From the NCBI GenBank assembly GCA_037380845.1, contig JARRRI010000004.1, positions 78,281 through 142,280 of the forward strand: a stretch of 64,000 bases of DNA. Direction: 5' to 3'. A program made the translations under genes and the position numbers. Shown here in pieces: positions 19,159 through 31,890 of the stretch. The notes beneath the pieces are model-generated. The model worked only from the letters and a program-made list of their open reading frames with translations. It made no database searches and was not told the DNA's origin. The stretch comes from Candidatus Sulfobium sp. (GTDB taxonomy: Bacteria > Nitrospirota > Thermodesulfovibrionia > Thermodesulfovibrionales > UBA6898). Numbering within the stretch: position 1 is the stretch's first letter; every line of letters begins with the position of its first letter.

Positions 19159-20199
19159 GGCAGGGGGCCCATAGGCCTGGACATAGGATCGAGCTACATC
19201 AAGACTGTCAAGCTGAAAGAATCAAAGGGCGGCTATGAACTTGAACTATTCGACATCCATCCCCTTCCGGCCGAGCTCATTGTCGACGGCGCCATAATAG
19301 ACTCCCTCCGGCTGGTCGACTCGATAAAGGAGATGATCGAGAAGGCCGGATTAAAGTCGAAGGAGGCTGTTATATCGATTTCCGGCCACTCTTCAGTGAT
19401 CATCAAACGGATCTCTTTGCCCGAAATGTCCGAGGAGGAACTTTCAGAGTCCATAAAATTCGAGGCCGAGCAGTATGTGCCCTTCGACATTGAAGACGTG
19501 AACCTCGATTTTCAGATCATCGGACCGAAGGAGGAGCCCGGCCAGATGGACGTCATCCTTGTAGCGGTTAAGAAGGAGATAATCAACGAATACACTTCCG
19601 CTGTCAAAGATGCCGGCCTTACGCCCGTTGTCGTGGATATAGATTCCTTTGCCCTCGAAAACATGTACGGCATAAATTACGAAGTCGAGGCTGGAAGAAA
19701 TGTTGCCCTGGTGAATATAGGGGCAAGCACAATAAATGTGAGCATCCTCAAAGGAGGCATTTCGGTCTTCACGAGGGACAGTTCTCTCGGCAGCAATGTC
19801 CACACGGAGGCGCTGCAGAGAGAATTCAACATCCCGTACGAGACGGCGGAAAGGCTGAAAAGAGGGGAGCCGGTCGAAAACATCGCGCAGGAGGACGCCC
19901 TGTCGGTTATCGGATCGGCCTCGCAAGAGATACTCGGAGAACTAGTCAGGTCTTTCGACTACTATCGTACCACCACCCTCCACGAGGATATTTCAGAGGT
20001 TATACTAAGCGGGGGCTGCGCCCTGCTCGGGAACTTCGCATCCATGATCGCCGAAAAAGCGGGCGTGGAGACGAGATTGGCCGAGCCGTTCCGCAACATC
20101 AAAATACCGAAGAGCTTCGACAGGGTTTACGTAGAAGAGATCGCCCCCATAATGGCGGTCGCCGTCGGGCTGGCCCTCAGAAAGCAGGGAGACAGATGA
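19159..20199 (+). CDS. pilM: Type IV pilus assembly protein PilM; native start codon and RBS missing
   Basis: Frame reads GRGPIGLDIGSSYIK from 19159, then actin-like PilM motifs; no ATG/GTG/TTG between the stop at 19093 and 19333. Confidence 0.9.
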   Translation, partial: GRGPIGLDIGSSYIKTVKLKESKGGYELELFDIHPLPAELIVDGAIIDSLRLVDSIKEMIEKAGLKSKEAVISISGHSSVIIKRISLPEMSEEELSESIKFEAEQYVPFDIEDVNLDFQIIGPKEEPGQMDVILVAVKKEIINEYTSAVKDAGLTPVVVDIDSFALENMYGINYEVEAGRNVALVNIGASTINVSILKGGISVFTRDSSLGSNVHTEALQREFNIPYETAERLKRGEPVENIAQEDALSVIGSASQEILGELVRSFDYYRTTTLHEDISEVILSGGCALLGNFASMIAEKAGVETRLAEPFRNIKIPKSFDRVYVEEIAPIMAVAVGLALRKQGDR

Positions 20200-20735
20200 T
20201 AAAGGTAAACCTACTCCCGGTAAAGAAGAAGAGAAGGGCAAAGCCGGTACCCGGCTTTCTCGTCGCGGCCGTAGTATTGCCAATAGCGACGGCGGCAGTG
20301 CTCGTCTATGTCATCTATTCGATGAACGCCGCGCTGACCTCAAGGAAGGACCTGGTCGCGAAAAACGACAAGAAGATCGCCCAGCTGAAGGAGAAGATCA
20401 AGTCTGTGACGGATTACGAAAAGCGGAACGCGGAGTACAAGAAGCGGAAGGAACTTGTAGAGAAGCTGAGCAGGAACAGGACCCTTCCCGTCAAGGCGCT
20501 CGACGAGATAAGCTCCCTCCTGCCTGCGGGAGTATGGCTCAATTCGCTGAAACTCAGCGGCGACAATATCAGTCTGTCGGGGACGGCGTTTACGAACACC
20601 GACGTAGTCAACTATGTCAACAACTGCAAGAATTCCCGGATGTTTACCAATGTATACCTGGGAGAATCGGTCCAGACCAGTATTTCGGGATTTTCCGCTT
20701 ATAACTTCAGATTGACGTTCAAGGTGAAGTCATAA
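20196..20735 (+). CDS. pilN: Type IV pilus assembly protein PilN
   Basis: MIKVNLLP motif, TM segment, coiled coil. Confidence 0.93.
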   Translation: MIKVNLLPVKKKRRAKPVPGFLVAAVVLPIATAAVLVYVIYSMNAALTSRKDLVAKNDKKIAQLKEKIKSVTDYEKRNAEYKKRKELVEKLSRNRTLPVKALDEISSLLPAGVWLNSLKLSGDNISLSGTAFTNTDVVNYVNNCKNSRMFTNVYLGESVQTSISGFSAYNFRLTFKVKS

Positions 20736-21346
20736 TGGCCAGACCGGATATAAGAAGCCTGCCGTCCTATGCCCGGATAATAATAGCCGTGCTCCCGGCA
20801 GTGCTTATCTCTGCGATTGTCATTATATTCATGGTGATGCCCAGGCAGAAGGAGATTAAGCAGCTCGATGCCAGGCTGGACAAACAGAACAACGAGATAG
20901 CCGCAGCCCAGGCCAAGGTGGCGAGACTCGACGTTCTCATAAAGGAGAACGAAAGGCTCAAGGTCAGGTGGGACGAATTGAAACAGCAGCTGCCGGAGGA
21001 GAGCGAGGTCTCGGGGCTTCTGAAGCAGGTGTCGGACAAAAGCCTCGCTTCGGGACTCGATATGCGTTCCTGGAGGCCGGGCTCCAAAAGGGTGTATCCC
21101 GGCGGCGTCGTTTACGAAATACCGGTTTCAGTACAAGTAAGCGGTACTTTTCACAATTTCGGCGGATTCCTTGGCAGCCTGACCCGGCTTAACAGAATTG
21201 TGAATGTGAACAACATACAGATGGGGAGCCCGAAGTTGAAGGGAGGAAGCAGTATCCTGCAGATATCCTTCACGGCGGCAACTTACTCGGCCATTCCTGA
21301 AAAAGAGATCGGGAAGGGCAAAAAAGGCGGGAGGGGCAGGAAATGA
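20735..21346 (+). CDS. pilO: Type IV pilus assembly protein PilO
   Basis: TM, coiled coil, LPEESEVSGLL, L.RIVNV; operon position. Confidence 0.92.
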   Translation: MARPDIRSLPSYARIIIAVLPAVLISAIVIIFMVMPRQKEIKQLDARLDKQNNEIAAAQAKVARLDVLIKENERLKVRWDELKQQLPEESEVSGLLKQVSDKSLASGLDMRSWRPGSKRVYPGGVVYEIPVSVQVSGTFHNFGGFLGSLTRLNRIVNVNNIQMGSPKLKGGSSILQISFTAATYSAIPEKEIGKGKKGGRGRK

Positions 21347-21864
21347 GGCGTCCGCTGGGGATACTTGCCTGTCTTCTGCTGGCCCTCTCACTGGCCGTTT
21401 CCGGGGGATGCGACAAGGCGCCTGTCCAGAGCAGGAAACAAGTGGCTAAAAAAGCAAAGCCGGCGCCCCGGGTTGTTGCCGTGCAGAAGCAGGAAAAGAA
21501 ACAGCAGCCGGAGGTCTACGAATATGAACCGGCGGGCAGGAGGGACCCTTTCACCTCACTCATCGCGATAGCCAAGGAGAAGCAGCAGCAGAAAAAGTCG
21601 CCCAATCCCATGGAAAATTTCGATGTCAGTGAAATAAGCTTGACCGCCATCGTATGGGCCGGGGACCATTATTACGCGCTCATTACACTGCCGAACAACA
21701 AGTCTTATACCATAACTAAAGGGATGACGCTGGGCCTTTACGGCGGCAAAGTCGAGAAGATTACAAGGGATTCCGTCCTGGTCAGGGAACAGGTGCGGGA
21801 TTACAGGGGGCGACTCAAAACTAAAGACACTATATTGAGACTCCGCAAGGAGGGAGAACAATGA
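21343..21864 (+). CDS. pilP: Type IV pilus assembly lipoprotein PilP
   Basis: Lipobox SGGC, Y.P.GRRDPF motif. Confidence 0.9.
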   Translation: MRRPLGILACLLLALSLAVSGGCDKAPVQSRKQVAKKAKPAPRVVAVQKQEKKQQPEVYEYEPAGRRDPFTSLIAIAKEKQQQKKSPNPMENFDVSEISLTAIVWAGDHYYALITLPNNKSYTITKGMTLGLYGGKVEKITRDSVLVREQVRDYRGRLKTKDTILRLRKEGEQ

Positions 21865-24182
21865 AAAGATATATCCTCTTGAGACTACTTCTGCCTGTCA
21901 TACTGGTGGCGTTGGCCGCAGGGTGCGCGACGTCTTCCAATGTGCGGCAGTCCGCCACTGAAGATGAAGCGGTAATCACGGGCATAAACCTTGGGGACAA
22001 CAGTCTCGCGATCAGCAGTAACAAACATTTTACCTATACGATCTACTCCACCGATGACCCCTACAGGATCACCGTGAACATCCCCGACATGTCGGCCGGC
22101 GGTTTTACCAGCAGGATAGTCTCGGAGAAGGCCGGTTTTACGGAGGTCATTCCCCGGCAGACCCCCGGCTCGGTAAAGATCGATGTCGTACTTCAGTCTC
22201 CGGTTCCGGTAGAGCCTTCTTACAAGGACAATACCCTCACCATCCGGGTGAAGGCGGAAGAACCCGCGGGCGCCGAAGGGCCTGCCACCTCAAAGGAGAG
22301 CATGAAGGCTGCGGACGAGCCGACCGCAGAAGCTGAATCCGCAGCCGGGGGCGAACCGATGGGCACGCCTCTGCACGAAGACAAAATATCCGGCGAAGAT
22401 GAACCCGCTAAGGCGACTGCTGAAGCAGCCGGAGAGACGTCCGAAGCCCGGCCCGAAAAGGCGGCGGATGAAAGTGCCGGGAACGGCGCTCCCTCGAAAC
22501 AGAAGGCGACCGAGATCACGGCGGTGAAACTCGAAAGGTCGGGTGCGGCGGTGAAGGTCGTCATCAGCGGCAACGGGACCATGGTCCCCAATGTCTTTCC
22601 CCTTGGCAAGAGGATAGTTATCGACATCCCCGCCGTTACCATGAATGCCTCGCTGCCTGAAAGTGTTATTTCTCCTCTTACCGGCATACGGGCCGGAAAG
22701 CACAGGCATAAGATAAGGGTGGTGCTGGACCTTAAGGAAAAAACAGGTTTTGAGGTCGCGGCAGTCGGAGACTCGGTCGAGATTTTGCTGGAAAAGAAAG
22801 GCATGGTCGCGGAGGCCACGCCTTCTGCTGAAGCCGAAGCCCCCGGCGAGGCCGCCTCAAAGGCAGCCACACCTCCGCCGCTGGAGACCCCGGTGGGGAA
22901 GATAGCGGCCGGAGAGACTGCGGCAACCGGCGGCGCGATGGCTAAGGCCGGTGTGAAGGCATTGGGCGGAGGCAAGTACAAGGGGAAGAAGATATCCCTT
23001 GATTTTCAGGACGCGGAAATAGGGCCTATTTTCAGGCTGCTGGCGGACGTGAACGGCTACAACCTCGTCCTCGACCGGTCCGTACACGGGCGGATCACGA
23101 TCAAACTTATGAATGTCCCCTGGGACCAGGCACTGGAGATTATACTGAACAGCACGACGCCTCCGCTGAGTTACAGGCTGGAGGGTAATATCCTGTGGGT
23201 GGCGCCCGTGAGCAAATTCGAGGCGCTGGTTAAAGAAAAGGAAAAATTGAGGAGCGCGGAGGAGAACGTCGAACCGCTGAAACAGGAGATCATACGGGTG
23301 AATTACTCCTCGGCGTCTGCTATCCAGTCCGCCATCAGCAGTGGAAAACTGCTGAGCCCGAGGGGGAGCATAACCATCGACAGCAGAATGAACACCCTCA
23401 TCGTGAAGGACACCCAGAACAGCATCGACAAGATGAAAGACCTGGTAAAGATAATGGATGTGGCTAAGCCCCAGGTCATGATAGAGGCCAAGATTGTGCA
23501 GGTCTCGAACGACTACAACCGGTCGCTCGGCATAAGGTGGGGCGGGTCCTTTACTACCCAGACGTTCCCGAATGTCGTAGACGGCAATTTCTCGGTCAAC
23601 ACCCCGACCGTGACGGGGGGTCCTGATCAGAACAGTCCCGGCGGCACTATGGGCATGACCGTCGGCCACGCCAATACCCTTCAGGTGAAGTTGTCCCTGG
23701 AGGCGCTGGAATCCATAGGCAAGGCGAAGACCCTGTCGAACCCGAAGATCCTGACGATGGATAACGAGTCGGCGACTATCCAGCAAGGTAAGACATTCTT
23801 CATCCCGCTGACGAGCCAGGCCGGCCCCACGACCCAGACGCAGCAGGCGACACTTAGCCTCACCGTCACCCCGAAGATCGCCCCCGACGGCTATGTCCAG
23901 CTGAAGGTGAATGCAACCGACAACAGCCTTGAGCCCGGGACGGCCGGGGCCCAGGCGGTGGTCGATACGAAGAGCCTCACTACCCAGGCGCTGGTGAGCA
24001 ACGGAGAGACGCTGGTTCTGGGCGGCATCTATACCAACGTCGAAACTGATAGTAGAGACCGGGTCCCTCTGCTGGGTAAAATACCTGTAATCGGATGGCT
24101 GTTCAAAACAGATACGAAGGTAGAGAGTGTATCGGAGTTGTTGATCTTCATAACACCGAGGATAGTCAAGCATGAGATGTAA
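21861..24182 (+). CDS. pilQ: Type IV pilus secretin PilQ with AMIN domains
   Basis: ISLDFQDA, VPWDQAL, QVMIEAKIV, VPLLGKIPVIGWLFK, ELLIFITPRI. Confidence 0.96.
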   Translation: MKRYILLRLLLPVILVALAAGCATSSNVRQSATEDEAVITGINLGDNSLAISSNKHFTYTIYSTDDPYRITVNIPDMSAGGFTSRIVSEKAGFTEVIPRQTPGSVKIDVVLQSPVPVEPSYKDNTLTIRVKAEEPAGAEGPATSKESMKAADEPTAEAESAAGGEPMGTPLHEDKISGEDEPAKATAEAAGETSEARPEKAADESAGNGAPSKQKATEITAVKLERSGAAVKVVISGNGTMVPNVFPLGKRIVIDIPAVTMNASLPESVISPLTGIRAGKHRHKIRVVLDLKEKTGFEVAAVGDSVEILLEKKGMVAEATPSAEAEAPGEAASKAATPPPLETPVGKIAAGETAATGGAMAKAGVKALGGGKYKGKKISLDFQDAEIGPIFRLLADVNGYNLVLDRSVHGRITIKLMNVPWDQALEIILNSTTPPLSYRLEGNILWVAPVSKFEALVKEKEKLRSAEENVEPLKQEIIRVNYSSASAIQSAISSGKLLSPRGSITIDSRMNTLIVKDTQNSIDKMKDLVKIMDVAKPQVMIEAKIVQVSNDYNRSLGIRWGGSFTTQTFPNVVDGNFSVNTPTVTGGPDQNSPGGTMGMTVGHANTLQVKLSLEALESIGKAKTLSNPKILTMDNESATIQQGKTFFIPLTSQAGPTTQTQQATLSLTVTPKIAPDGYVQLKVNATDNSLEPGTAGAQAVVDTKSLTTQALVSNGETLVLGGIYTNVETDSRDRVPLLGKIPVIGWLFKTDTKVESVSELLIFITPRIVKHEM

Positions 24183-24251
24183 ACATGGCAACGAAATTTA
24201 TCGGGGTCTGATTTCGGTATTGAGGAATAGAGAAAAAAGCGAGGAGGAGTG

Positions 24252-24884
24252 ATGAAGGACATATACCTTGGATTCATATCGATATTATTATTCCCGTTGC
24301 TGCTGGCGGGCTGCGGGGGCGGCTCGGGCGCTCCGGGTTCCTCGGGCAGCGCCGATACGGGTGTTCTTGTGCAGTCTGTCGGTGCGGTCGTCTCCACCCC
24401 TACGTCGAGTGGAGGTACGGCGGGCGGTGGCGGCACCTCAAATCCCGACATCGACACGGCCATTCACCTCTGCCCGGGCGGGGAGCCTGAGGCCGGCCTT
24501 TTCAGGACGGACGCCATACTCACGGTCTCGACCGCAGCGCTTAATCCTGATACGGCTTCAGACCCTTTTCCTGCCAGCGTAGAAAGGTGCACTATCACTT
24601 ACAAAAAGGCCGATGAAGACCCGGCGGCGCCGATCATCCCGGAATTTACAGCGTATCCTAACTGCCCGCTTATCGATGGTGAAAATACATGCATAATGAC
24701 GTTCATGGACATCCAGAGGAAGGTCGATTTCTGGGACGCCCTCGTGGGGGCAACCAATTACCCCGCTACTTATCCGACCCACTATATTGGGGTGATCAAC
24801 TGCTCATACATGAACGCCTTCGGCAAGAGCGGCAATTTCCAGACCGAAGTGGACGTCTGGCTGGCCGATTTCGATTTGTGCTGA
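24252..24884 (+). CDS. Hypothetical lipoprotein, Cys-rich
   Basis: Lipobox LAGC, Gly/Ser linker, six further Cys; SD GAGGAGG. Confidence 0.8.
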   Translation: MKDIYLGFISILLFPLLLAGCGGGSGAPGSSGSADTGVLVQSVGAVVSTPTSSGGTAGGGGTSNPDIDTAIHLCPGGEPEAGLFRTDAILTVSTAALNPDTASDPFPASVERCTITYKKADEDPAAPIIPEFTAYPNCPLIDGENTCIMTFMDIQRKVDFWDALVGATNYPATYPTHYIGVINCSYMNAFGKSGNFQTEVDVWLADFDLC

Positions 24885-24898
24885 TAGGGGAGGAGAAG

Positions 24899-26296
24899 AT
24901 GAAAAAATTTTTCTTGATTGCGATTCTTTTTACACTTTCCATAGCGATGGCGGGCTGCGGGGGAGGCACAGGGTCTTCGAGCCAGCCCTCGGGTGTCAAC
25001 GGTGGGACGCCATCCGTCATCCAGCTGCTGCCTATCCAGACCATTGCCCAGACCAACTCATCCATCTCCCTCAAGGCCAAGGTCCTTGACGGCAACGGGA
25101 ACCTCCTCCCCAGCGTCCCCGTCACGTTCACAAACCTCTCGACGGTCGGCAGTCTGAGCTCAACGACCGCCAATACGGACCGGAATGGCATTGCCACCGT
25201 AAGTCTGTTTTCTTCCACGTCGGGTTTTTCCACCGTCCAGTCCGAAGTCAACACCGGGGCAGGGATGGTGAGGGACAAGCGGACCGTATTTTTCTCGAAC
25301 TTCGACCTTACGGTGCCGTCGCCCACCCCGGCGCCTGCGCCAGTGCTCACCCTCGATGTGGACGGGAACAATAACGGCATATTTAATGAGCCCAGCGACT
25401 TCATTCTTTTTGAAACCCCGGAGGACAACGAGGTGATTGTCCGGGCGACTCTCACGACGGGAGATATACCGATACCCGGGAGCCTGATTACCTTCGGCTC
25501 CGACACGGAAGAGGGGACGTTCCCACTCGGCGACACCGTCCTTACCGACGTCAACGGACAGGCGTCCGTTCTGGTGAAGGTCGACCCTGTTGTGCTGAGG
25601 AACTTCAATACAGTCCTTAATATCACCGCGATGTCGGATGACGGGGCATCGAACCTTGTTTCCCTGTTCCTTGACCCCGTGCTTATCGATACACTATCCG
25701 TATCCTCGGACCTGCAGACGGTGGATTCCGGAGGGACCGCAAATATCTCGGCCCTGTTGATGACAACGGCGGGTACCACGGCCCCGGATGGAACGGCGGT
25801 GAGCTTCATGACCACCACCGGCGGGGTGACGCCCTTCAGCCAGACAACGGACGGGATCGCAAAAGCCACGTTTACGGCGCCCACACTTGTCCCGGGTTCC
25901 TTCGGCCAGCAGGCCACAATAACGGCTTCATCGGGAGGGAAATCCGATACTGTAAAGATTACAATAGTGGCGCCGCCTGCACCGACGCCCGCACCGACGC
26001 CCACACCGACGCCGGTGCCTGCACTGGTGGTTACGCCGCCTAATGCAACGATTCCGTGCGAGGGTGCCACTGCAATTTTCTTCGTGACCGGGGGTGTTTC
26101 GCCTTACGCGGTACAGCCGGCAGTGACAACGACACTTGTCACTCTCGATAAAACTAATTTGTCAGCTAACGGCTCGTTTACAGTGAAATCGAATGCTTGC
26201 GCATCGGTTCCTGTGGGAAACAATACGGTGAACATCTTGGTCAGCGATAGTGGTGGTACCGTTCTCACCGTTCCGGTTACGGTGACAAACCCGTGA
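24899..26296 (+). CDS. Lipoprotein with Big_1/invasin-like Ig domains and Pro/Thr linker
   Basis: Lipobox MAGC; VLDGNGN..VPVTF..ANTDRNGIATV and similar repeats; PAPTPAPTPTPTP linker. Confidence 0.8.
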   Translation: MKKFFLIAILFTLSIAMAGCGGGTGSSSQPSGVNGGTPSVIQLLPIQTIAQTNSSISLKAKVLDGNGNLLPSVPVTFTNLSTVGSLSSTTANTDRNGIATVSLFSSTSGFSTVQSEVNTGAGMVRDKRTVFFSNFDLTVPSPTPAPAPVLTLDVDGNNNGIFNEPSDFILFETPEDNEVIVRATLTTGDIPIPGSLITFGSDTEEGTFPLGDTVLTDVNGQASVLVKVDPVVLRNFNTVLNITAMSDDGASNLVSLFLDPVLIDTLSVSSDLQTVDSGGTANISALLMTTAGTTAPDGTAVSFMTTTGGVTPFSQTTDGIAKATFTAPTLVPGSFGQQATITASSGGKSDTVKITIVAPPAPTPAPTPTPTPVPALVVTPPNATIPCEGATAIFFVTGGVSPYAVQPAVTTTLVTLDKTNLSANGSFTVKSNACASVPVGNNTVNILVSDSGGTVLTVPVTVTNP

Positions 26297-26324: not shown

Positions 26325-26351
26325 GGGCGGGCGAAGGCCCGCCCCCTTTTT
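26325..26351 (+). terminator. Rho-independent terminator-like hairpin
   Basis: gggcgggc-gaag-gcccgccc followed by a T tract. Confidence 0.7.
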
Positions 26352-26369: not shown

Positions 26370-28280
26370 ATGATGAAAAGGTTTATCTATATTTCTATCG
26401 CACTCATACTCGCGTCGTGCGGGAGCCAGAAGTCCGGCGACATATCCCTGAATTCCGTCCAGCAGGCCCCCGCCAAAGAGGCGGCTTCCGTAGCGGCCCC
26501 TTCGGTCAAGGCCCCTGTTGCGACGGTCCAGTCCATACTTGCCGAGGCTGAAAAGGGCGGATACAGGAAGGGGGAACTCCTGGTCCGTTATAAAACAGGA
26601 ACAGCCGCCGCTGCGTCCGCCAGGATGAACTCGGCAGTCGGGGCAAAATCCGTGAGGAAGTTCCCTCTGGTCAACGCCGAACAGGTGAAGCTCCCGGAAG
26701 GCGTTTCAGTAAAGGACGCCGTCTCCCGGTACATGCAGGACCCGGACGTCCTCTATGCCGAGCCTAATTACCTGAGATACCCGATGATGACCCCCAACGA
26801 TACCTATTTTAACCCCCAGCAGTGGGCATTAGATAATACCGGAACATACGCAAGCGGTACAGTGGGCGATGATATCGGGATGCCGCAGGCGTGGGACCTG
26901 ACTCAGGGAAGCAGGGACGTTATCGTGGCCGACATAGACAGCGGCGTGGATTACAACCATCCCGACCTGGTAAACAACATATGGATCAATACGGGCGAAG
27001 ACTGCAACAACGGCATCGATGACGACGGAAACGGCTACATAGACGATTGCCAGGGATGGAACTTTCCGGCCGGTACGAATGATCCCATGGACGACTTCGG
27101 ACACGGCACCCATGTCGCCGGCATTATCGGCGCCGTCGGCAACAACGGACAGGGCATAGCCGGCGTCATGTGGAACGTGAGGATCATGCCCCTGAAATTC
27201 ATATCTCAGCTGGGTCCCGTTGCATGCGGGGGAGAAGAAGGATTCTGCGGCGACGTCGCGGACGAGGTGGCTGCGATCCAGTATGCGGTGGACAACGGGG
27301 CGAAGGTCATTAACGCCAGTTACGGGGCAGAGACTTTTTCGCAGGACGAGCACGACGCAATCAGTGCGGCAAACGATGCCGGAGTGCTCTTTGTAGCCGC
27401 CGCGGGCAACGGGAGCCTCGACACGGCGGGGGACAACAACGACATCATGCCGGAATACCCGGCCGGCTATAATCTGCCGAACATAATAGCTGTTGCGGCC
27501 ACCGACCAGAACGACGAGAGGGCGTCTTTCAGCAACTTCGGGCCGAACTCGGTCCAGGTCGCCGCGCCGGGGGTCTATATCCTGAGCACGGTGCCCACGA
27601 TGGGCGTCGCGGGTTCCTTCAGTTCCTTCTGCACGTCTTCCTTCTTTACAGGGTATGAAATCTGCAGCGGCACTTCCATGGCCGCGCCGCACGTCGCAGG
27701 GCTTGCCGGTCTTCTGGAGAGTTACTACACTAATTTCGACTATGGGCAGGTCCGCTCCACGATCCTCAGATATGTGGACGGACGCCCCACTCTTAACGGC
27801 TGGGTCAAGACCGGCGGAAGGGTGAACGCCTACAAAGCTCTTTCCTCCCTGCTTGCACCGACGGACTTGGATGCCTCGTCGACACTGCCTTCTGAAGTCT
27901 CGCTGTCCTGGTCCGACAACGCGACGGGGGAGGACGGTTACACGGTTGAGAGGAAAACGGGCGACGGCGGCTATGCCGTGGTCCAGACGCTCGGGCCGGA
28001 CGCAGCCGGCTACACCGATTCCGGCCTCGTCGCGGGCACGACATACACTTACCGGGTGAGGGCGTTCAACAATATCGGAGAGTCACTGGACGGCCCGGGC
28101 AATGTGGCTACAGTGACTACGCCCGGGTCGGCCCCCTCTGCGGAGACCGGAGGGAGCGGAGGAGGGTGCTCTGTCGCCACCCGTCCCGGCGACTCCACGG
28201 CCCCCGGGGACATCGCCGTGTTCCTGCTCCCCCTGGTTGTGCTCTTCGTTATTAAAAGGGTCAGGCGCAGGAAGGCATAA
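26370..28280 (+). CDS. S8 subtilisin-family serine protease; lipoprotein with Fn3 domain and C-terminal Cys-containing sorting signal
   Basis: Lipobox LASC; triad motifs DIDSG, HGTHVAG, GTSMAAPHVAG; Fn3 (W.DN...Y.Y.VRAFN); tail GGSGGGC...TM...KRVRRRKA. Confidence 0.93.
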   Translation: MMKRFIYISIALILASCGSQKSGDISLNSVQQAPAKEAASVAAPSVKAPVATVQSILAEAEKGGYRKGELLVRYKTGTAAAASARMNSAVGAKSVRKFPLVNAEQVKLPEGVSVKDAVSRYMQDPDVLYAEPNYLRYPMMTPNDTYFNPQQWALDNTGTYASGTVGDDIGMPQAWDLTQGSRDVIVADIDSGVDYNHPDLVNNIWINTGEDCNNGIDDDGNGYIDDCQGWNFPAGTNDPMDDFGHGTHVAGIIGAVGNNGQGIAGVMWNVRIMPLKFISQLGPVACGGEEGFCGDVADEVAAIQYAVDNGAKVINASYGAETFSQDEHDAISAANDAGVLFVAAAGNGSLDTAGDNNDIMPEYPAGYNLPNIIAVAATDQNDERASFSNFGPNSVQVAAPGVYILSTVPTMGVAGSFSSFCTSSFFTGYEICSGTSMAAPHVAGLAGLLESYYTNFDYGQVRSTILRYVDGRPTLNGWVKTGGRVNAYKALSSLLAPTDLDASSTLPSEVSLSWSDNATGEDGYTVERKTGDGGYAVVQTLGPDAAGYTDSGLVAGTTYTYRVRAFNNIGESLDGPGNVATVTTPGSAPSAETGGSGGGCSVATRPGDSTAPGDIAVFLLPLVVLFVIKRVRRRKA

Positions 28281-28341
28281 GACGGGCTGCGGTGAACAAG
28301 TGACTAAGAGGGGCTCCGGCCCCTCTCTTCTTTTCAGCCGG

Positions 28342-28881
28342 ATGAAGAAAAAGGCGGTCATTGCGTACGCAGCTCTTCTCGTCATCGTCTTTCTCTCCCA
28401 CGCCTTTCCCGCCCGCGCCTTTGCCTATGCGATCCCGATCTTTCTGGCGGGCGTTCCCGTGCTCCTCAGGGGCAGGATCAACTTCTCCTTTTCCATGAAG
28501 GACCTTATGACCGGTGTCCTCGCTTCTCTCCTTATCCTCACCCCGGTATTCGTCTGGCTGCATGTGCAGAAGGGGTCCCGGCCCCTGTCCCTGCATATGG
28601 TCATGACGCAGCTCTTTCTCGTCTCCTTCCCGGAAGAGGTCTTCTTCAGGGGGTTCCTCCAGGACGTTCTTGGAAACAATATCGCGGGGGTCGTGATCGT
28701 GAGCCTCATGTTTTCCCTGTCCCACCTTGCCTCTTTCCTGTTCGGAGGAGATATCTATGCCCCCCTTACCTTCTTCCCGTCGCTCGTAATGGGCCTCCTC
28801 TACCTGAAGACGTCCAACGTCCTGCCTTCGACCGTATTCCACTTTCTGGCGAATGTGGTCTTTCTGGGAGTTATGATATAA
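28342..28881 (+). CDS. CPBP (Abi/CAAX, Rce1-like) glutamic intramembrane protease; candidate myxosortase-type sorting enzyme
   Basis: EEVFFRG, FSLSH, HFLAN motifs in a multi-TM protein; alternative GTG start at 28300. Confidence 0.9.
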   Translation: MKKKAVIAYAALLVIVFLSHAFPARAFAYAIPIFLAGVPVLLRGRINFSFSMKDLMTGVLASLLILTPVFVWLHVQKGSRPLSLHMVMTQLFLVSFPEEVFFRGFLQDVLGNNIAGVVIVSLMFSLSHLASFLFGGDIYAPLTFFPSLVMGLLYLKTSNVLPSTVFHFLANVVFLGVMI

Positions 28882-29032
28882 TCTAAGACGCCGGAATGTA
28901 AGAGAGGCGGACGGCCACAGAGGGCGCAAAAATCACGGAGAGAAGAAAAGGTTTGATTTTTTGTGTTATATGCGCCTGTTGCGGCCGCTGTTCTTGCAGG
29001 TTAAAAATGCATTTGATTGTGAGGCCCCTGAT

Positions 29033-30190
29033 ATGACAAAGCTGCGGTTCCTGACATCGGGTGAATCGCACGGGCAGGCGCTGGTAGGGATCCTTGAAGG
29101 CATACCGGCGGGGGTGCCCGTTTCGCCGGAAGACATAGACCGCCAGCTGCGCAGGCGGCAGCAGGGATACGGAAGGGGCGGGAGGATGAAGATAGAGTCC
29201 GACAGCGCCCGGATAATGGCCGGGGTCCGCTGGGGCATGACGATAGGCTCTCCCGTAAGCATCCTTGTCGAGAACAGGGACTGGCAGAACTGGCGGGAGG
29301 GTATGTCGCCGGATGCCGGGAGCCTGGATTCGATCAAGGCCGTGACGCGGCCCAGACCCGGCCACGCGGACCTGGCGGGCGTTCTCAAGTACGGACGAGA
29401 AGATATACGCGACGTCCTCGAAAGGTCGAGCGCCCGGGAGACGGCCATGCGGGTGGCCCTGGGGGCGGTGGCCCGGAAGTTCCTCTCCCTGTTCGATATC
29501 AGGGTGGGGAGTTACGTGACCGGAATCGGGAAGGCAAAGGCCGCCGCAAGCCCCTCTCCGGAGGAGAAAGTCTTGTCGGGGATGTTTGAAAAGGCGGAGA
29601 AATCCCCGGTCAGGTGTCCCGACCCCGAAGTCTCAAAAAAGATGATAAGGGCGATAGACAAAGCAAAAAAAGAGGGCGACTCACTCGGCGGAACGTTCGA
29701 TATCTTCGTTACCAAACTCGACGGACGGCTGGCCCAGGCGGTGATGAGCATACAGGCGATCAAGGGTGTCGAAATAGGCGCCGGTTTTGAGGCGGGCGGG
29801 CGGCCCGGGTCGGAAGTGATGGACGAGATATTTTTCGGCCGGAAGAGAAACGAGAAAAACCGCGCCGGGGGCTTCTATCGCAAAACGAACAACGCCGGCG
29901 GAATCGAGGGGGGGATGACAAACGGGATGCCTGTGATCGTCAGGGCGGCCATGAAACCCATCCCCACGCTGAGGAGGGCGCTCCGCTCCGTGGATATCAG
30001 GACGGGCAGGCCCTTCGAGGCCGCTTATGAGCGCTCGGACGTCTGCGCCGTACCCGCCGCGGCAATAGTCGCGGAGGCGATGGCGGCCCTTGTGGCGGCG
30101 GATGCATTCCTTGAGAAATTCGGCGGCGACAGCGCCGAAGAGACGGTGCGGAATTTCGATTCCTACCTCACCTCGATGAAAAGGCTATAG
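29033..30190 (+). CDS. aroC: Chorismate synthase with an apparent in-frame internal deletion
   Basis: LTSGESHG, RPGHAD, RSSARET, AMKPIPTL, ERSDVCAVP; the GxPxGLG segment before KLDGRLA is absent. Confidence 0.92.
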   Translation: MTKLRFLTSGESHGQALVGILEGIPAGVPVSPEDIDRQLRRRQQGYGRGGRMKIESDSARIMAGVRWGMTIGSPVSILVENRDWQNWREGMSPDAGSLDSIKAVTRPRPGHADLAGVLKYGREDIRDVLERSSARETAMRVALGAVARKFLSLFDIRVGSYVTGIGKAKAAASPSPEEKVLSGMFEKAEKSPVRCPDPEVSKKMIRAIDKAKKEGDSLGGTFDIFVTKLDGRLAQAVMSIQAIKGVEIGAGFEAGGRPGSEVMDEIFFGRKRNEKNRAGGFYRKTNNAGGIEGGMTNGMPVIVRAAMKPIPTLRRALRSVDIRTGRPFEAAYERSDVCAVPAAAIVAEAMAALVAADAFLEKFGGDSAEETVRNFDSYLTSMKRL

Positions 30191-30301
30191 CACCCAATCG
30201 CCCGACATACGAGTGCTGTACGGCCGATATTAAAAAAGTAAAAGTCCACCGCGCGGCTCTGCGGTGAGAATATTTTGGTACCGGCTCCGCCGGGCCGGGG
30301 G

Positions 30302-30829
30302 ATGATGATGAAATGCGGGGCAAAAAATATCGTGCTTACGGGCTTCATGGGTACCGGCAAGACCGAGGTCGGCAAGGAACTCTCCCGGATGCTCGACATG
30401 AAGCTGATAGACATAGATACCGAGATTGAAGCCGGGCAGGGCATGAAGATTACCGATATCTTCGGGGCCTTCGGGGAGCAGCGCTTCAGGGAGATTGAGA
30501 GCGAGATGATCAGGAAGATAGGGGAGATGGAGAAGGTGGTCATCTCTGCCGGCGGAGGGGTGGTCCTTAGAGAAGAAAATATGGAGGCGCTGAGGAGGAA
30601 GGGGATGATCTTCTGCCTGCGCGCCCGTCCTGCCACTATTTTGGACCGTACAAGGGGCAGCGCCGGCAGGCCTCTCCTTAATGTCGAGGACCCTCTGGCC
30701 AGGATAAGGGAGCTGCTGGAATTCAGGCGGCCTTTCTACGAGAAGGCAGGAAAGGTCATAGATACCGAAAGCAAGACGCCGCTGCAGGTCGCCCGGGAGA
30801 TCGCGGAGATATTCCAGTGCAGAAAATAA
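30302..30829 (+). CDS. aroK: Shikimate kinase
   Basis: GFMGTGKT, GEQRFRE, GGG, RPLL; start at one of three tandem ATGs. Confidence 0.95.
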   Translation: MMMKCGAKNIVLTGFMGTGKTEVGKELSRMLDMKLIDIDTEIEAGQGMKITDIFGAFGEQRFREIESEMIRKIGEMEKVVISAGGGVVLREENMEALRRKGMIFCLRARPATILDRTRGSAGRPLLNVEDPLARIRELLEFRRPFYEKAGKVIDTESKTPLQVAREIAEIFQCRK

Positions 30830-31890
30830 GGGTCGAGCTGGCTGACAGGAGTTACAATATCGCGATAGACAGCGGGATGCTTGCAGGAATCGGGAGGGCT
30901 CTCGAAAAATTTGAATTCAGCGCAAGGCTGGCGCTGGTGAGCAACCCCACGGTATACGGGCTTTACGGGCAGACCGTTTCGGACTCGATGAGGGCTTCGG
31001 GCTTCGAACTCATCGAAATAATCATCCCCGACGGTGAGGAGTACAAGAACCTCGCCTGGGTGGAAAATATATACGGGGAACTGCTGAAGGCCCGGCTGGA
31101 CAGGAAATCTGCCGTGGTGGCCCTCGGAGGCGGGGTGATAGGCGACATCACCGGGTTTGCGGCATCGACTTATATGAGGGGGGTGGATTTTGTCCAGGTG
31201 CCTACGACCCTTCTCGCCCAGGTCGACAGCTCGGTCGGCGGGAAGACCGGGGTGAACCATCCCCTGGGTAAGAACATGATAGGCTCCTTCTGGCAGCCCA
31301 GGCTCGTTTGGATCGACACCGACACCCTAAAGACCCTGCCCCGGCGGCAGTACCTGGCCGGGATCTCAGAAGTCATCAAGTACGGCGTAATCTGGGACGC
31401 GGATTTTTTTGCCTTCCTGGAAGAAAACAGGGACAAGCTCCTGGACATGGAAGGTGACACCGTCGCCCATGTCGTGAAGAGGTCCTGCGAGATCAAGGCC
31501 GATGTCGTCTCCAGGGACGAGAGGGAAGCCGGGCTGAGGGCGATACTGAATTACGGACACACGATAGGCCACGCCATAGAAACGGCAAGCGGCTACGGTA
31601 AGCATCTTCACGGTGAAGCGGTGGCTATGGGAATGTGCCTCGAGGCCAGGCTGGCTCAGGCAAAGGGACTTGTGGGGGCGGAGGATGCCGGGCGCATAGA
31701 GGACCTTGTCAGGTCTTACGGACTTCCGGCGGAACTGCCGGCCGACGCCGACCCGGCCGTACTTTTTTCTTCCATGCAACTCGACAAGAAGGCGGTATCG
31801 GGAGAGCTGAGGTGCGTACTTCCCGAGAGGATAGGCAGGGTGAGGATAGAGAGCGGCCTTACCCGCGAAGATATGGAAAGGGTTTTGTGA
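30817..31890 (+). CDS. aroB: 3-dehydroquinate synthase
   Basis: GGGVIGD, PTTLLAQVDSSVGGKTG, LNYGHTIGHA. Confidence 0.97.
   Translation: MQKIRVELADRSYNIAIDSGMLAGIGRALEKFEFSARLALVSNPTVYGLYGQTVSDSMRASGFELIEIIIPDGEEYKNLAWVENIYGELLKARLDRKSAVVALGGGVIGDITGFAASTYMRGVDFVQVPTTLLAQVDSSVGGKTGVNHPLGKNMIGSFWQPRLVWIDTDTLKTLPRRQYLAGISEVIKYGVIWDADFFAFLEENRDKLLDMEGDTVAHVVKRSCEIKADVVSRDEREAGLRAILNYGHTIGHAIETASGYGKHLHGEAVAMGMCLEARLAQAKGLVGAEDAGRIEDLVRSYGLPAELPADADPAVLFSSMQLDKKAVSGELRCVLPERIGRVRIESGLTREDMERVL

Follow-up and report, generated by a model that had tools for sequence, protein, structure and literature searches.

A GGCS-type C-terminal tag and its adjacent CPBP protease: a candidate cysteine-tag sorting pair in Nitrospirota

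Tripartite C-terminal tags that carry a Cys and pair with CPBP-family enzymes were defined as a class by Haft (bioRxiv 10.1101/2023.06.07.544157). That preprint describes four such tags, all paired with CPBP enzymes, and presents JDVT-CTERM and MrtJ as a dedicated adjacent pair (10.1101/2023.06.07.544157). In a further study, MrtX cuts MYXO-CTERM in a Cys-dependent manner in both M. xanthus and E. coli (PMC11980579). MrtX of Myxococcus is the only myxosortase known to have been bench-tested. Here, we analyse a subtilase gene and the CPBP gene directly downstream of it in a 64,000-nucleotide stretch of DNA (C4:78281-142280, the whole of which is referred to as the window) from the 3.18-Mb, 104-contig assembly of an uncultured marsh bacterium, Candidatus Sulfobium sp. 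Judged from their sequences, the two genes quite probably encode a cognate tag and tag-processing protease of the myxosortase type, and by analogy with the described systems the pair is most likely a so far uncatalogued version of this recently discovered bacterial route for fixing proteins to the surface. A full-text literature search found no paper joining myxosortase with Nitrospirota, and a second search, on CPBP, subtilisin and C-terminal sorting, listed nothing beyond the myxosortase papers and unrelated work.

The tag, the CPBP protease and their co-occurrence

The features of the two genes are as follows.

26370..28280 (+), S8 subtilase gene, predicted substrate, 636 residues plus stop (open reading frame; Pfam Peptidase_S8)
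26403..26420 (+), putative N-terminal lipoprotein signal with LILASC lipobox, Cys17 (read from sequence)
26529..26768 (+), Fervidolysin-type N-terminal prodomain, residues 54–133 (Pfam PF22148, Fervidolysin_NPro-like, 62.6 bits)
26913..27773 (+), S8 catalytic domain, residues 182–468 (Pfam Peptidase_S8, 184.5 bits)
27855..28085 (+), fn3 domain, residues 496–572, followed by a low-complexity linker (Pfam PF00041, 34.6 bits)
28149..28172 (+), tag signature GGSGGGCS, residues 594–601, a Gly run ending in GGCS; Cys600 is encoded at 28167–28169
28173..28211 (+), polar spacer between Cys motif and helix, ending in Asp at Cys+14 (tail alignment); counted from residue 601, the spacer has 14 residues (601–614)
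28212..28253 (+), the tag's one transmembrane helix, residues 615–628, containing the Pro at Cys+21 (alignment and sequence)
28254..28277 (+), basic tail KRVRRRKA, residues 629–636, predicted cytoplasmic (sequence)
28342..28881 (+), CPBP/Rce1-like glutamic intramembrane protease gene, predicted tag-cleaving enzyme, 179 residues plus stop (Pfam PF02517)
28630..28653 (+), CPBP motif 1, PEEVFFRG (E98, E99, R103), invariant in orthologues
28711..28725 (+), CPBP motif 2, FSLSH (F124, H128), invariant in orthologues
28837..28854 (+), CPBP motif 3, FHFLAN (H167, N171), invariant in orthologues

The subtilase retains its three catalytic motifs, DIDSG (residues 188–192), HGTHV (245–249) and GTSMA (434–438), and its open reading frame ends exactly as an initial annotation of the locus had read it, in a Gly run, a Cys, a spacer, a transmembrane helix and a basic tail. 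Of 17 S8 N-termini compared, 15 contain a lipobox-like L-x-[SA]-C (13 by a script pattern and two, both LFSC, by eye). For the tag, an alignment and a profile were made of 15 orthologous tails, taken from the CPBPs' own neighbours. The G-G-C-S motif is invariant in 15/15 of them, and the Cys, whose loss in orthologues would have spoken against the initial annotation, is thus fully conserved. In addition, D or N occupies Cys+14, Pro stands at Cys+21 in 13/15 tails, and the next Leu is invariant. The window tail scores E 1.4e-23 with the 15-tail profile and is the sole such tail in the whole 3.18-Mb assembly, indicating that it is no chance feature. The tripartite layout, composed of an invariant-Cys motif, a transmembrane helix and a basic C-terminal cluster, occurs on unrelated proteins (13 S8 and three non-S8).

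The CPBP gene starts at ATG 28342, as in the orthologues, and not at TTG 28237. Its product scores 61.6 bits on Pfam PF02517 (Rce1-like; gathering threshold 22.4), and the EExxxR, FxxxH and HxxxN residues are invariant in 18/18 CPBP orthologues, in keeping with the initial reading of this gene as a short CPBP/Abi protease with intact motifs. An AlphaFold2 model built on the orthologue alignment has eight helices (predicted local distance difference test, pLDDT, 93.3; predicted template modelling score, pTM, 0.89). In a Foldseek search with this model, the top Protein Data Bank (PDB) matches are four chains of MmRce1 (4cad; probability 0.99–1.00, query-based template modelling score, TMq, 0.51–0.73, best E 8e-3), followed by SpdC (6u0o), and the modelled CPBP has the Rce1 fold. 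The best-ranking of these MmRce1 chains reach probability 1.00 and TMq 0.67–0.73. The alignment profile of the CPBP gives no match to PDB sequences at E <= 1, and Rce1 is recovered by the fold search alone.

Comparison with the curated models places the pair near the described families and outside all of them. The seven best NCBIfam matches of the window CPBP are all Mrt models, all under their cut-offs; the scores (bits/cut-off) are 72.1/130 for MrtS, 55.5/100 for Mrt_core, 54.3/250 for MrtP, 42.7/75 for MrtJ, 41.7/195 for MrtC, 31.2/180 for MrtX, 29.1/325 for MrtZ and 20.3/200 for MrtA. Of 13 CPBPs compared (that of the window and 12 relatives), none attains the cut-off of an Mrt model, and Mrt_core (NF040914) gives 58–76 bits on the 12 relatives. 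The second CPBP of the same genome, used as a control, gives 38.9 bits on Mrt_core and 35.7 bits on MrtS and has a non-Mrt model as its best match. No curated cut-off is reached by the window tail either. MYXO-CTERM (TIGR03901) scores it at 13.3–13.7 bits (cut-off 20) and matches 5/15 orthologous tails at E <= 10 (best 0.0014), and JDVT-CTERM (NF033191) weakly matches 8/15 orthologous tails at the same threshold (best 0.015). The window tail itself shows no match at E <= 10 to JDVT-CTERM, Synerg-CTERM, GlyGly-CTERM, PEP-CTERM, IPTL-CTERM or CFI-box-CTERM. The wording of the initial annotation, a possibly lineage-specific variant, is the accurate one. Three other proteins of the same genome, encoded outside the window at C73:2-1705 (+), C47:37716-38414 (-) and C8:2695-3525 (+), end in IPTL-CTERM-type tails. 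TIGR04174 (IPTL-CTERM) gives 32.8, 22.4 and 17.2 bits on them (cut-off 20.5), so that two of the three pass, providing a positive control for short-tag models. All three match the midcut-by-XrtH model weakly, and the genome probably runs an exosortase-type sorting system too.

The linkage of tag and CPBP was examined in 41 related Thermodesulfovibrionales genomes, including that of the window. The CPBP is found in 18/41 genomes, and in 15 of these 18 a tail-bearing open reading frame lies directly upstream of it on the same strand, the exceptions being G020, G031 and G035. At E <= 0.01 the tail profile matches 19/41 genomes, namely all 18 CPBP-positive ones and G017 (E 0.0044). The G017 match was dropped upon inspection, being without GGCS and not a C-terminal tripartite tail. 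After inspection, the tail is thus present in 18/18 CPBP-positive and 0/23 CPBP-negative relatives. The CPBP-positive relatives have one or two tails per genome, the window's genome has one, and the three exceptions to adjacency, which are CPBP-positive and absent from the profile, all carry tails elsewhere. Together with the invariant Cys, this adjacency and co-occurrence argue for the cognate enzyme–substrate pair that the initial annotation had proposed. All the computational checks suggested in that annotation gave favourable results.

The tag tracks the CPBP, not the subtilase. The 16 tail-bearing proteins scanned comprise 13 prodomain-S8-fn3 proteases and three non-S8 proteins (two Temptin_C-like and one Ig-repeat protein). 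In G032, the Ig-repeat tail protein is the immediate CPBP neighbour and bears the genome's only tail, and the window subtilase has no match in that genome at E <= 1e-40. A role of the CPBP as immunity factor or regulator of the subtilase was rejected, as the G032 CPBP adjoins this tail-bearing non-protease. For S8 homologues in CPBP-negative relatives, the alignment to the window subtilase covers the prodomain and catalytic part alone. Ten S8 loci were inspected in these relatives: five have a CFI-box region, two have no anchor of any kind, and three run off the locus. The CFI-box regions tested (4/4) score 106–108 bits on NF041770 (cut-off 40). CFI-box-CTERM is present in 12/41 relatives (3/18 CPBP-positive, 9/23 CPBP-negative), the window's genome not among them, and does not track the CPBP. 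The CPBP as servant of CFI-box-CTERM was accordingly rejected, the two being distributed independently.

Several carriers deserve separate mention. The CFI-box-CTERM subtilases at L192, L193, L194, L190 and L200 (G004, G039, G019, G025 and G030) have a Gly run and a Cys before the domain, and the alternation of CFI-box-CTERM and GGCS tag looks like a natural C-terminal anchor swap on one protease family. The two Temptin_C-like tail carriers (L059:5986-7296 (-) in G006 and L057:5279-6514 (+) in G020; 26.9 and 23.7 bits, cut-off 27) are about 410–440 residues long, with ordinary signal peptides lacking a lipobox Cys and with Cys-rich N-terminal parts. Furthermore, a metallo-beta-lactamase-fold insert (Lactamase_B_2, 75–80 bits) lies within the S8 domain of the subtilases at L049:10371-13064 (-) in G016 and L058:3919-6594 (+) in G020, which are 898 and 892 residues long and in which Peptidase_S8 spans residues ~196–724.

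An evenly sampled set of 301 genomes of the phylum was also searched, at thresholds of E <= 1e-20 for the CPBP and E <= 0.001 for the tail. The CPBP occurs in 19 genomes (18 in the same order), the tail in 22 and both in 16. Six genomes are tail-only (G233, G041, G067, G052, G061 and G156). In G233 a CPBP with a weaker match (60 bits) lies directly beside the tail, and the G156 match (E 4.4e-4) was judged false on the same grounds as that of G017. Gly-run/Cys tripartite tails of the forms Gly-run-CGV and Gly-run-CSV are seen in other Nitrospirota orders, at L170:5970-6725 (-) in G067, L173 in G041, L168:5804-8296 (+) in G052 and L171 in G061; these are candidates for further Cys-tag systems.

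Gene neighbourhood and the wider CPBP family

The pair lies in a longer array of genes on the same strand, with the following further features.

19333..24182 (+), pilM-pilN-pilO-pilP-pilQ, encoding the type IV pilus alignment complex with its secretin, conserved upstream neighbour
24249..24884 (+), Lpp1, predicted lipoprotein of 211 residues without a Pfam family, conserved
24899..26296 (+), Big1, predicted lipoprotein that bears an Ig-like domain of the Big_1 family (Pfam Big_1, 57.6 bits)
28307..28336 (+), terminator-like GC hairpin (28307–28326; 8 pairs, 6 GC) plus T-rich run in the 61 nucleotides that separate the S8 gene from the CPBP gene
28961..31890 (+), aroC-aroK-aroB, conserved downstream neighbour

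The order pilMNOPQ, Lpp1, Big1, subtilase, CPBP, aroC-aroK-aroB is found in full in G001 and G016 and partly in G006 and G011. The pil genes are identified by Pfam (PilM_2 210.9, PilN 68.3, PilO 101.2, PilP 59.6 and Secretin 159.2 bits, plus AMIN). The window's genome encodes four secretins and three S8 proteases, just one of the latter with a GGCS tail. G001, G016 and G020 retain Lpp1 in its place after pilQ and before the S8 gene, and Big1 adjoins the tail-bearing S8 gene in G001, G006, G011, G016, G020, G031 and G035. In G020, G031 and G035 the CPBP is relocated, and the tail-bearing subtilase remains beside pilQ and the Big_1 protein. Lpp1 and Big1 are kept between pilQ and the tail-bearing subtilase even where the CPBP of a relative sits elsewhere, and it is possible that they are partners or substrates of the subtilase. 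A second terminator-like hairpin with a T-rich run lies at 26325–26344 (+), in the gap 5' of the subtilase gene. Across the scanned region six terminator-like sites were found versus 4.6 expected; these are consensus matches only and not above chance. The hairpins flanking the subtilase gene may allow the substrate to be transcribed at a level different from that of the CPBP.

A scan of GTDB species genomes (one per species) yielded at least 536 CPBP relatives, and the best 80 loci were examined with fetched flanks of up to 3 kb. A tail gene lies inside the fetched locus in 45 of these best 80, being upstream of the CPBP in 33, downstream only in three and convergent in nine. For distant CPBPs (L129–L146 and others), a generic tripartite-tail scan gave no Cys tail in the fetched flanks. 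A quick tree was made from 78 CPBPs with an outgroup, whose very long branch leaves the root unsure. In it, 15 rows group together as a clade (SH-like approximate likelihood ratio test, SH-aLRT, 100). The members of this clade come from Thermodesulfobacteriota, Dadabacteria, Spirochaetia, a delta proteobacterium and an uncultured bacterium, and 0/15 have a tail gene in the fetched flanks. On the CPBP tree, the tail-adjacency label requires at least three changes. Tails of the form GGGC[SA]-spacer-helix-basic occur elsewhere in 5/5 genomes of the 15-row clade tested, a count with no negative control. A broader scenario that we consider rather improbable is that the GGCS tag and its CPBP belong to a wider, uncatalogued Cys-tag family of Nitrospirota, Thermodesulfobacteriota (including Dadabacteria) and Spirochaetota. 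This family would ancestrally have resided in a pilMNOPQ-lipoprotein-Big_1 lipoprotein-subtilase-CPBP operon, and export across the outer membrane would go through PilQ, not a type II secretion system. Lipid would anchor the subtilase at either end, first through the N-terminal lipobox of the prodomain and, on maturation, through the C-terminal Cys.

Proposed processing of the tag and alternative explanations

By analogy with MrtX, the CPBP most likely removes the subtilase tail. From its putative N-terminal lipoprotein signal, the pre-pro-subtilase would be exported by Sec, and the tripartite design suggests that the C-terminal helix first holds it in the inner membrane, keeping the Lys/Arg tail on the cytoplasmic side. 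As in MYXO-CTERM and CAAX processing, the invariant Cys600 would be modified, probably with lipid, by a separate and possibly Lgt-like enzyme. Recognition by the CPBP would involve the GGCS motif, the conserved Asp/Asn and the helix Pro, and the enzyme would cut distal to Cys600, so that spacer, helix and basic tail are removed. Subtilases normally cut off their prodomain, and autocleavage of the prodomain would deprive the mature protease-fn3 part of its N-terminal lipid. As the lipobox lies upstream of the prodomain that gets cut off, the C-terminal Cys anchor would then retain the mature enzyme, once it has passed a secretin, at the envelope or cell surface. For cleavage, Cys lipidation and surface export the argument is one of analogy with MrtX and MYXO-CTERM, and the core claim of a cognate pair is surer than the individual chemical steps.

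Three other explanations were weighed. The tail could be a permanent, uncleaved stop-transfer anchor and the CPBP could have another job, such as quality control, immunity or protease regulation. A single helix with a basic tail suffices for anchoring, the two genes have a terminator-like hairpin between them, and many CPBPs have unknown roles, some adjoining bacteriocin genes as immunity factors (10.1101/2023.06.07.544157). We nevertheless regard this explanation as unlikely, for it leaves unexplained both the invariant GGCS, which lies 14 residues outside the helix, and the restriction of the CPBP to tail-bearing genomes among the 41 relatives. In addition, the CPBP of G032 adjoins a tail-bearing non-protease and so tracks the tail, and the catalytic residues are invariant. 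Likewise, the pair could be a diverged member of a described family, either of the MYXO-CTERM/MrtX type or JDVT-CTERM/MrtJ, that curated thresholds miss, as the weak MYXO-CTERM match of the window tail, the JDVT-CTERM matches of 8/15 orthologous tails and the CPBP matches to MrtS, Mrt_core, MrtP, MrtJ and MrtC would suggest. This is more doubtful still: 0/13 CPBPs score over any Mrt cut-off, and the defining features of the described tags differ from those of the GGCS tag, which lacks DP at Cys+9 and has a spacer, a helix Pro and a single Cys.

The explanation to which we give the least credence is that the tail is a true sorting signal processed by another enzyme (exosortase, rhombosortase, Lsp or periplasmic protease) and that shared regulation alone accounts for the link with the CPBP. 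The IPTL-CTERM-type tails make a second sorting system likely in this genome, and M. xanthus keeps some surface localisation without MrtX (PMC11980579). The tail, however, matches no PEP-CTERM, IPTL-CTERM or GlyGly-CTERM model at E <= 10 even though the IPTL-CTERM model works in this genome, all four described Cys tripartite tags pair with CPBPs (10.1101/2023.06.07.544157), and co-occurrence and adjacency single out this particular CPBP.

Several observations weigh against reading the two genes as tag carrier and cognate processing enzyme. The tail profile was made from the CPBPs' own neighbours, which introduces circularity for 15 of the 18 positives and leaves three positives and 23 negatives as the independent part; moreover, the genomes are related metagenome-assembled genomes and not independent samples, and the counts overstate independence. 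In the phylum sample, a CPBP occurs without a tail at E <= 0.001 in 3/301 genomes (G214, G287 and G291), and the tail-positive G041, G067, G052 and G061, which belong to other orders, are without a CPBP at E <= 1e-20. No tail gene lies inside the fetched locus in 35 of the best 80 loci, 18 of which are the lower-scoring group L129–L146. The hairpin between the subtilase and CPBP genes speaks against strict co-transcription, and the spacer is longer than in the described Cys tags, making the cleavage site uncertain. Finally, sub-cut-off matches to Mrt_core are unspecific, being seen in 9/14 control genomes as well, and the Mrt affinity of the window CPBP, for this reason, is real but modest.

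If the pair works as proposed, the known reach of Cys-tag/CPBP sorting would come to include Nitrospirota and probably Thermodesulfobacteriota, and the pair would be a convenient second model beside MrtX, with a 179-residue enzyme, one or two clients next door and a client, the subtilase, that can be assayed. Natural controls are at hand in the homologous subtilases of sister genomes that have CFI-box-CTERM or no anchor. Among the 120 homologues listed, those with a public name bear a generic one, such as CPBP family metalloprotease, Abi, YdiL or Rce1 family, and the assignment would let hundreds of genes named 'CPBP family intramembrane metalloprotease', 'Abi' or 'YdiL' be annotated.

Comparison with described Cys-tag systems

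JDVT-CTERM/MrtJ resembles the GGCS system in its single invariant Cys, its tripartite tag and the conserved acidic and Pro positions after the Cys, as well as in having one or two clients per genome, a short adjacent CPBP and a sporadic distribution among related genomes. By comparison, JDVT-CTERM has a near-invariant DP at Cys+9, whereas the GGCS tag has D/N at Cys+14 and Pro at Cys+21. The MrtJ model (NF033192) scores the window CPBP under its cut-off, and JDVT-CTERM occurs in Pseudomonadota, the GGCS pair in Nitrospirota. Synerg-CTERM/MrtS (TIGR04564/NF040589) shares a Gly/Ser-rich run ending in one Cys and a conserved Pro within the helix; in addition, MrtS is the best curated model for the window CPBP, and the enzymes are of similar size (~170–180 residues). 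Synerg-CTERM is distinct in being restricted to Synergistales and in lacking a spacer between Cys and helix, where the GGCS tag has 14 polar residues.

MYXO-CTERM with MrtX, MrtC and MrtP (NF040593, NF040594 and NF040674) likewise combines a Cys tripartite tag with a CPBP glutamic protease, and MYXO-CTERM/MrtX is the sole member of the class with experimental proof (PMC11980579). It has dozens of clients, an unlinked enzyme, a helix without Pro or charged residue and a frequent GCGC (10.1101/2023.06.07.544157), whereas the GGCS system has one or two clients, an adjacent enzyme, a helix Pro in 13/15 tails and a single Cys. Outside these tags, CFI-box-CTERM (NF041770) is also a Cys-containing C-terminal module that follows a Gly run on homologous subtilases of the same order, but it is a 69-position domain with another motif and with a distribution independent of the CPBP. 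MmRce1 (4cad) is the best structural match and has the same EExxxR, FxxxH and HxxxN motifs; Rce1 takes off three residues after a prenylated Cys, whereas the GGCS system would lose a membrane-spanning tail of ~36 residues.

The 14-residue spacer between Cys and helix is found in none of the described tags. In its sequence the GGCS tag appears as a hybrid, in which a JDVT-like single Cys and acidic position before the helix are combined with a Synerg-like helix Pro. The pair falls in no described family by membership tests, but it probably works like JDVT-CTERM/MrtJ, as a dedicated, low-copy tag and protease.

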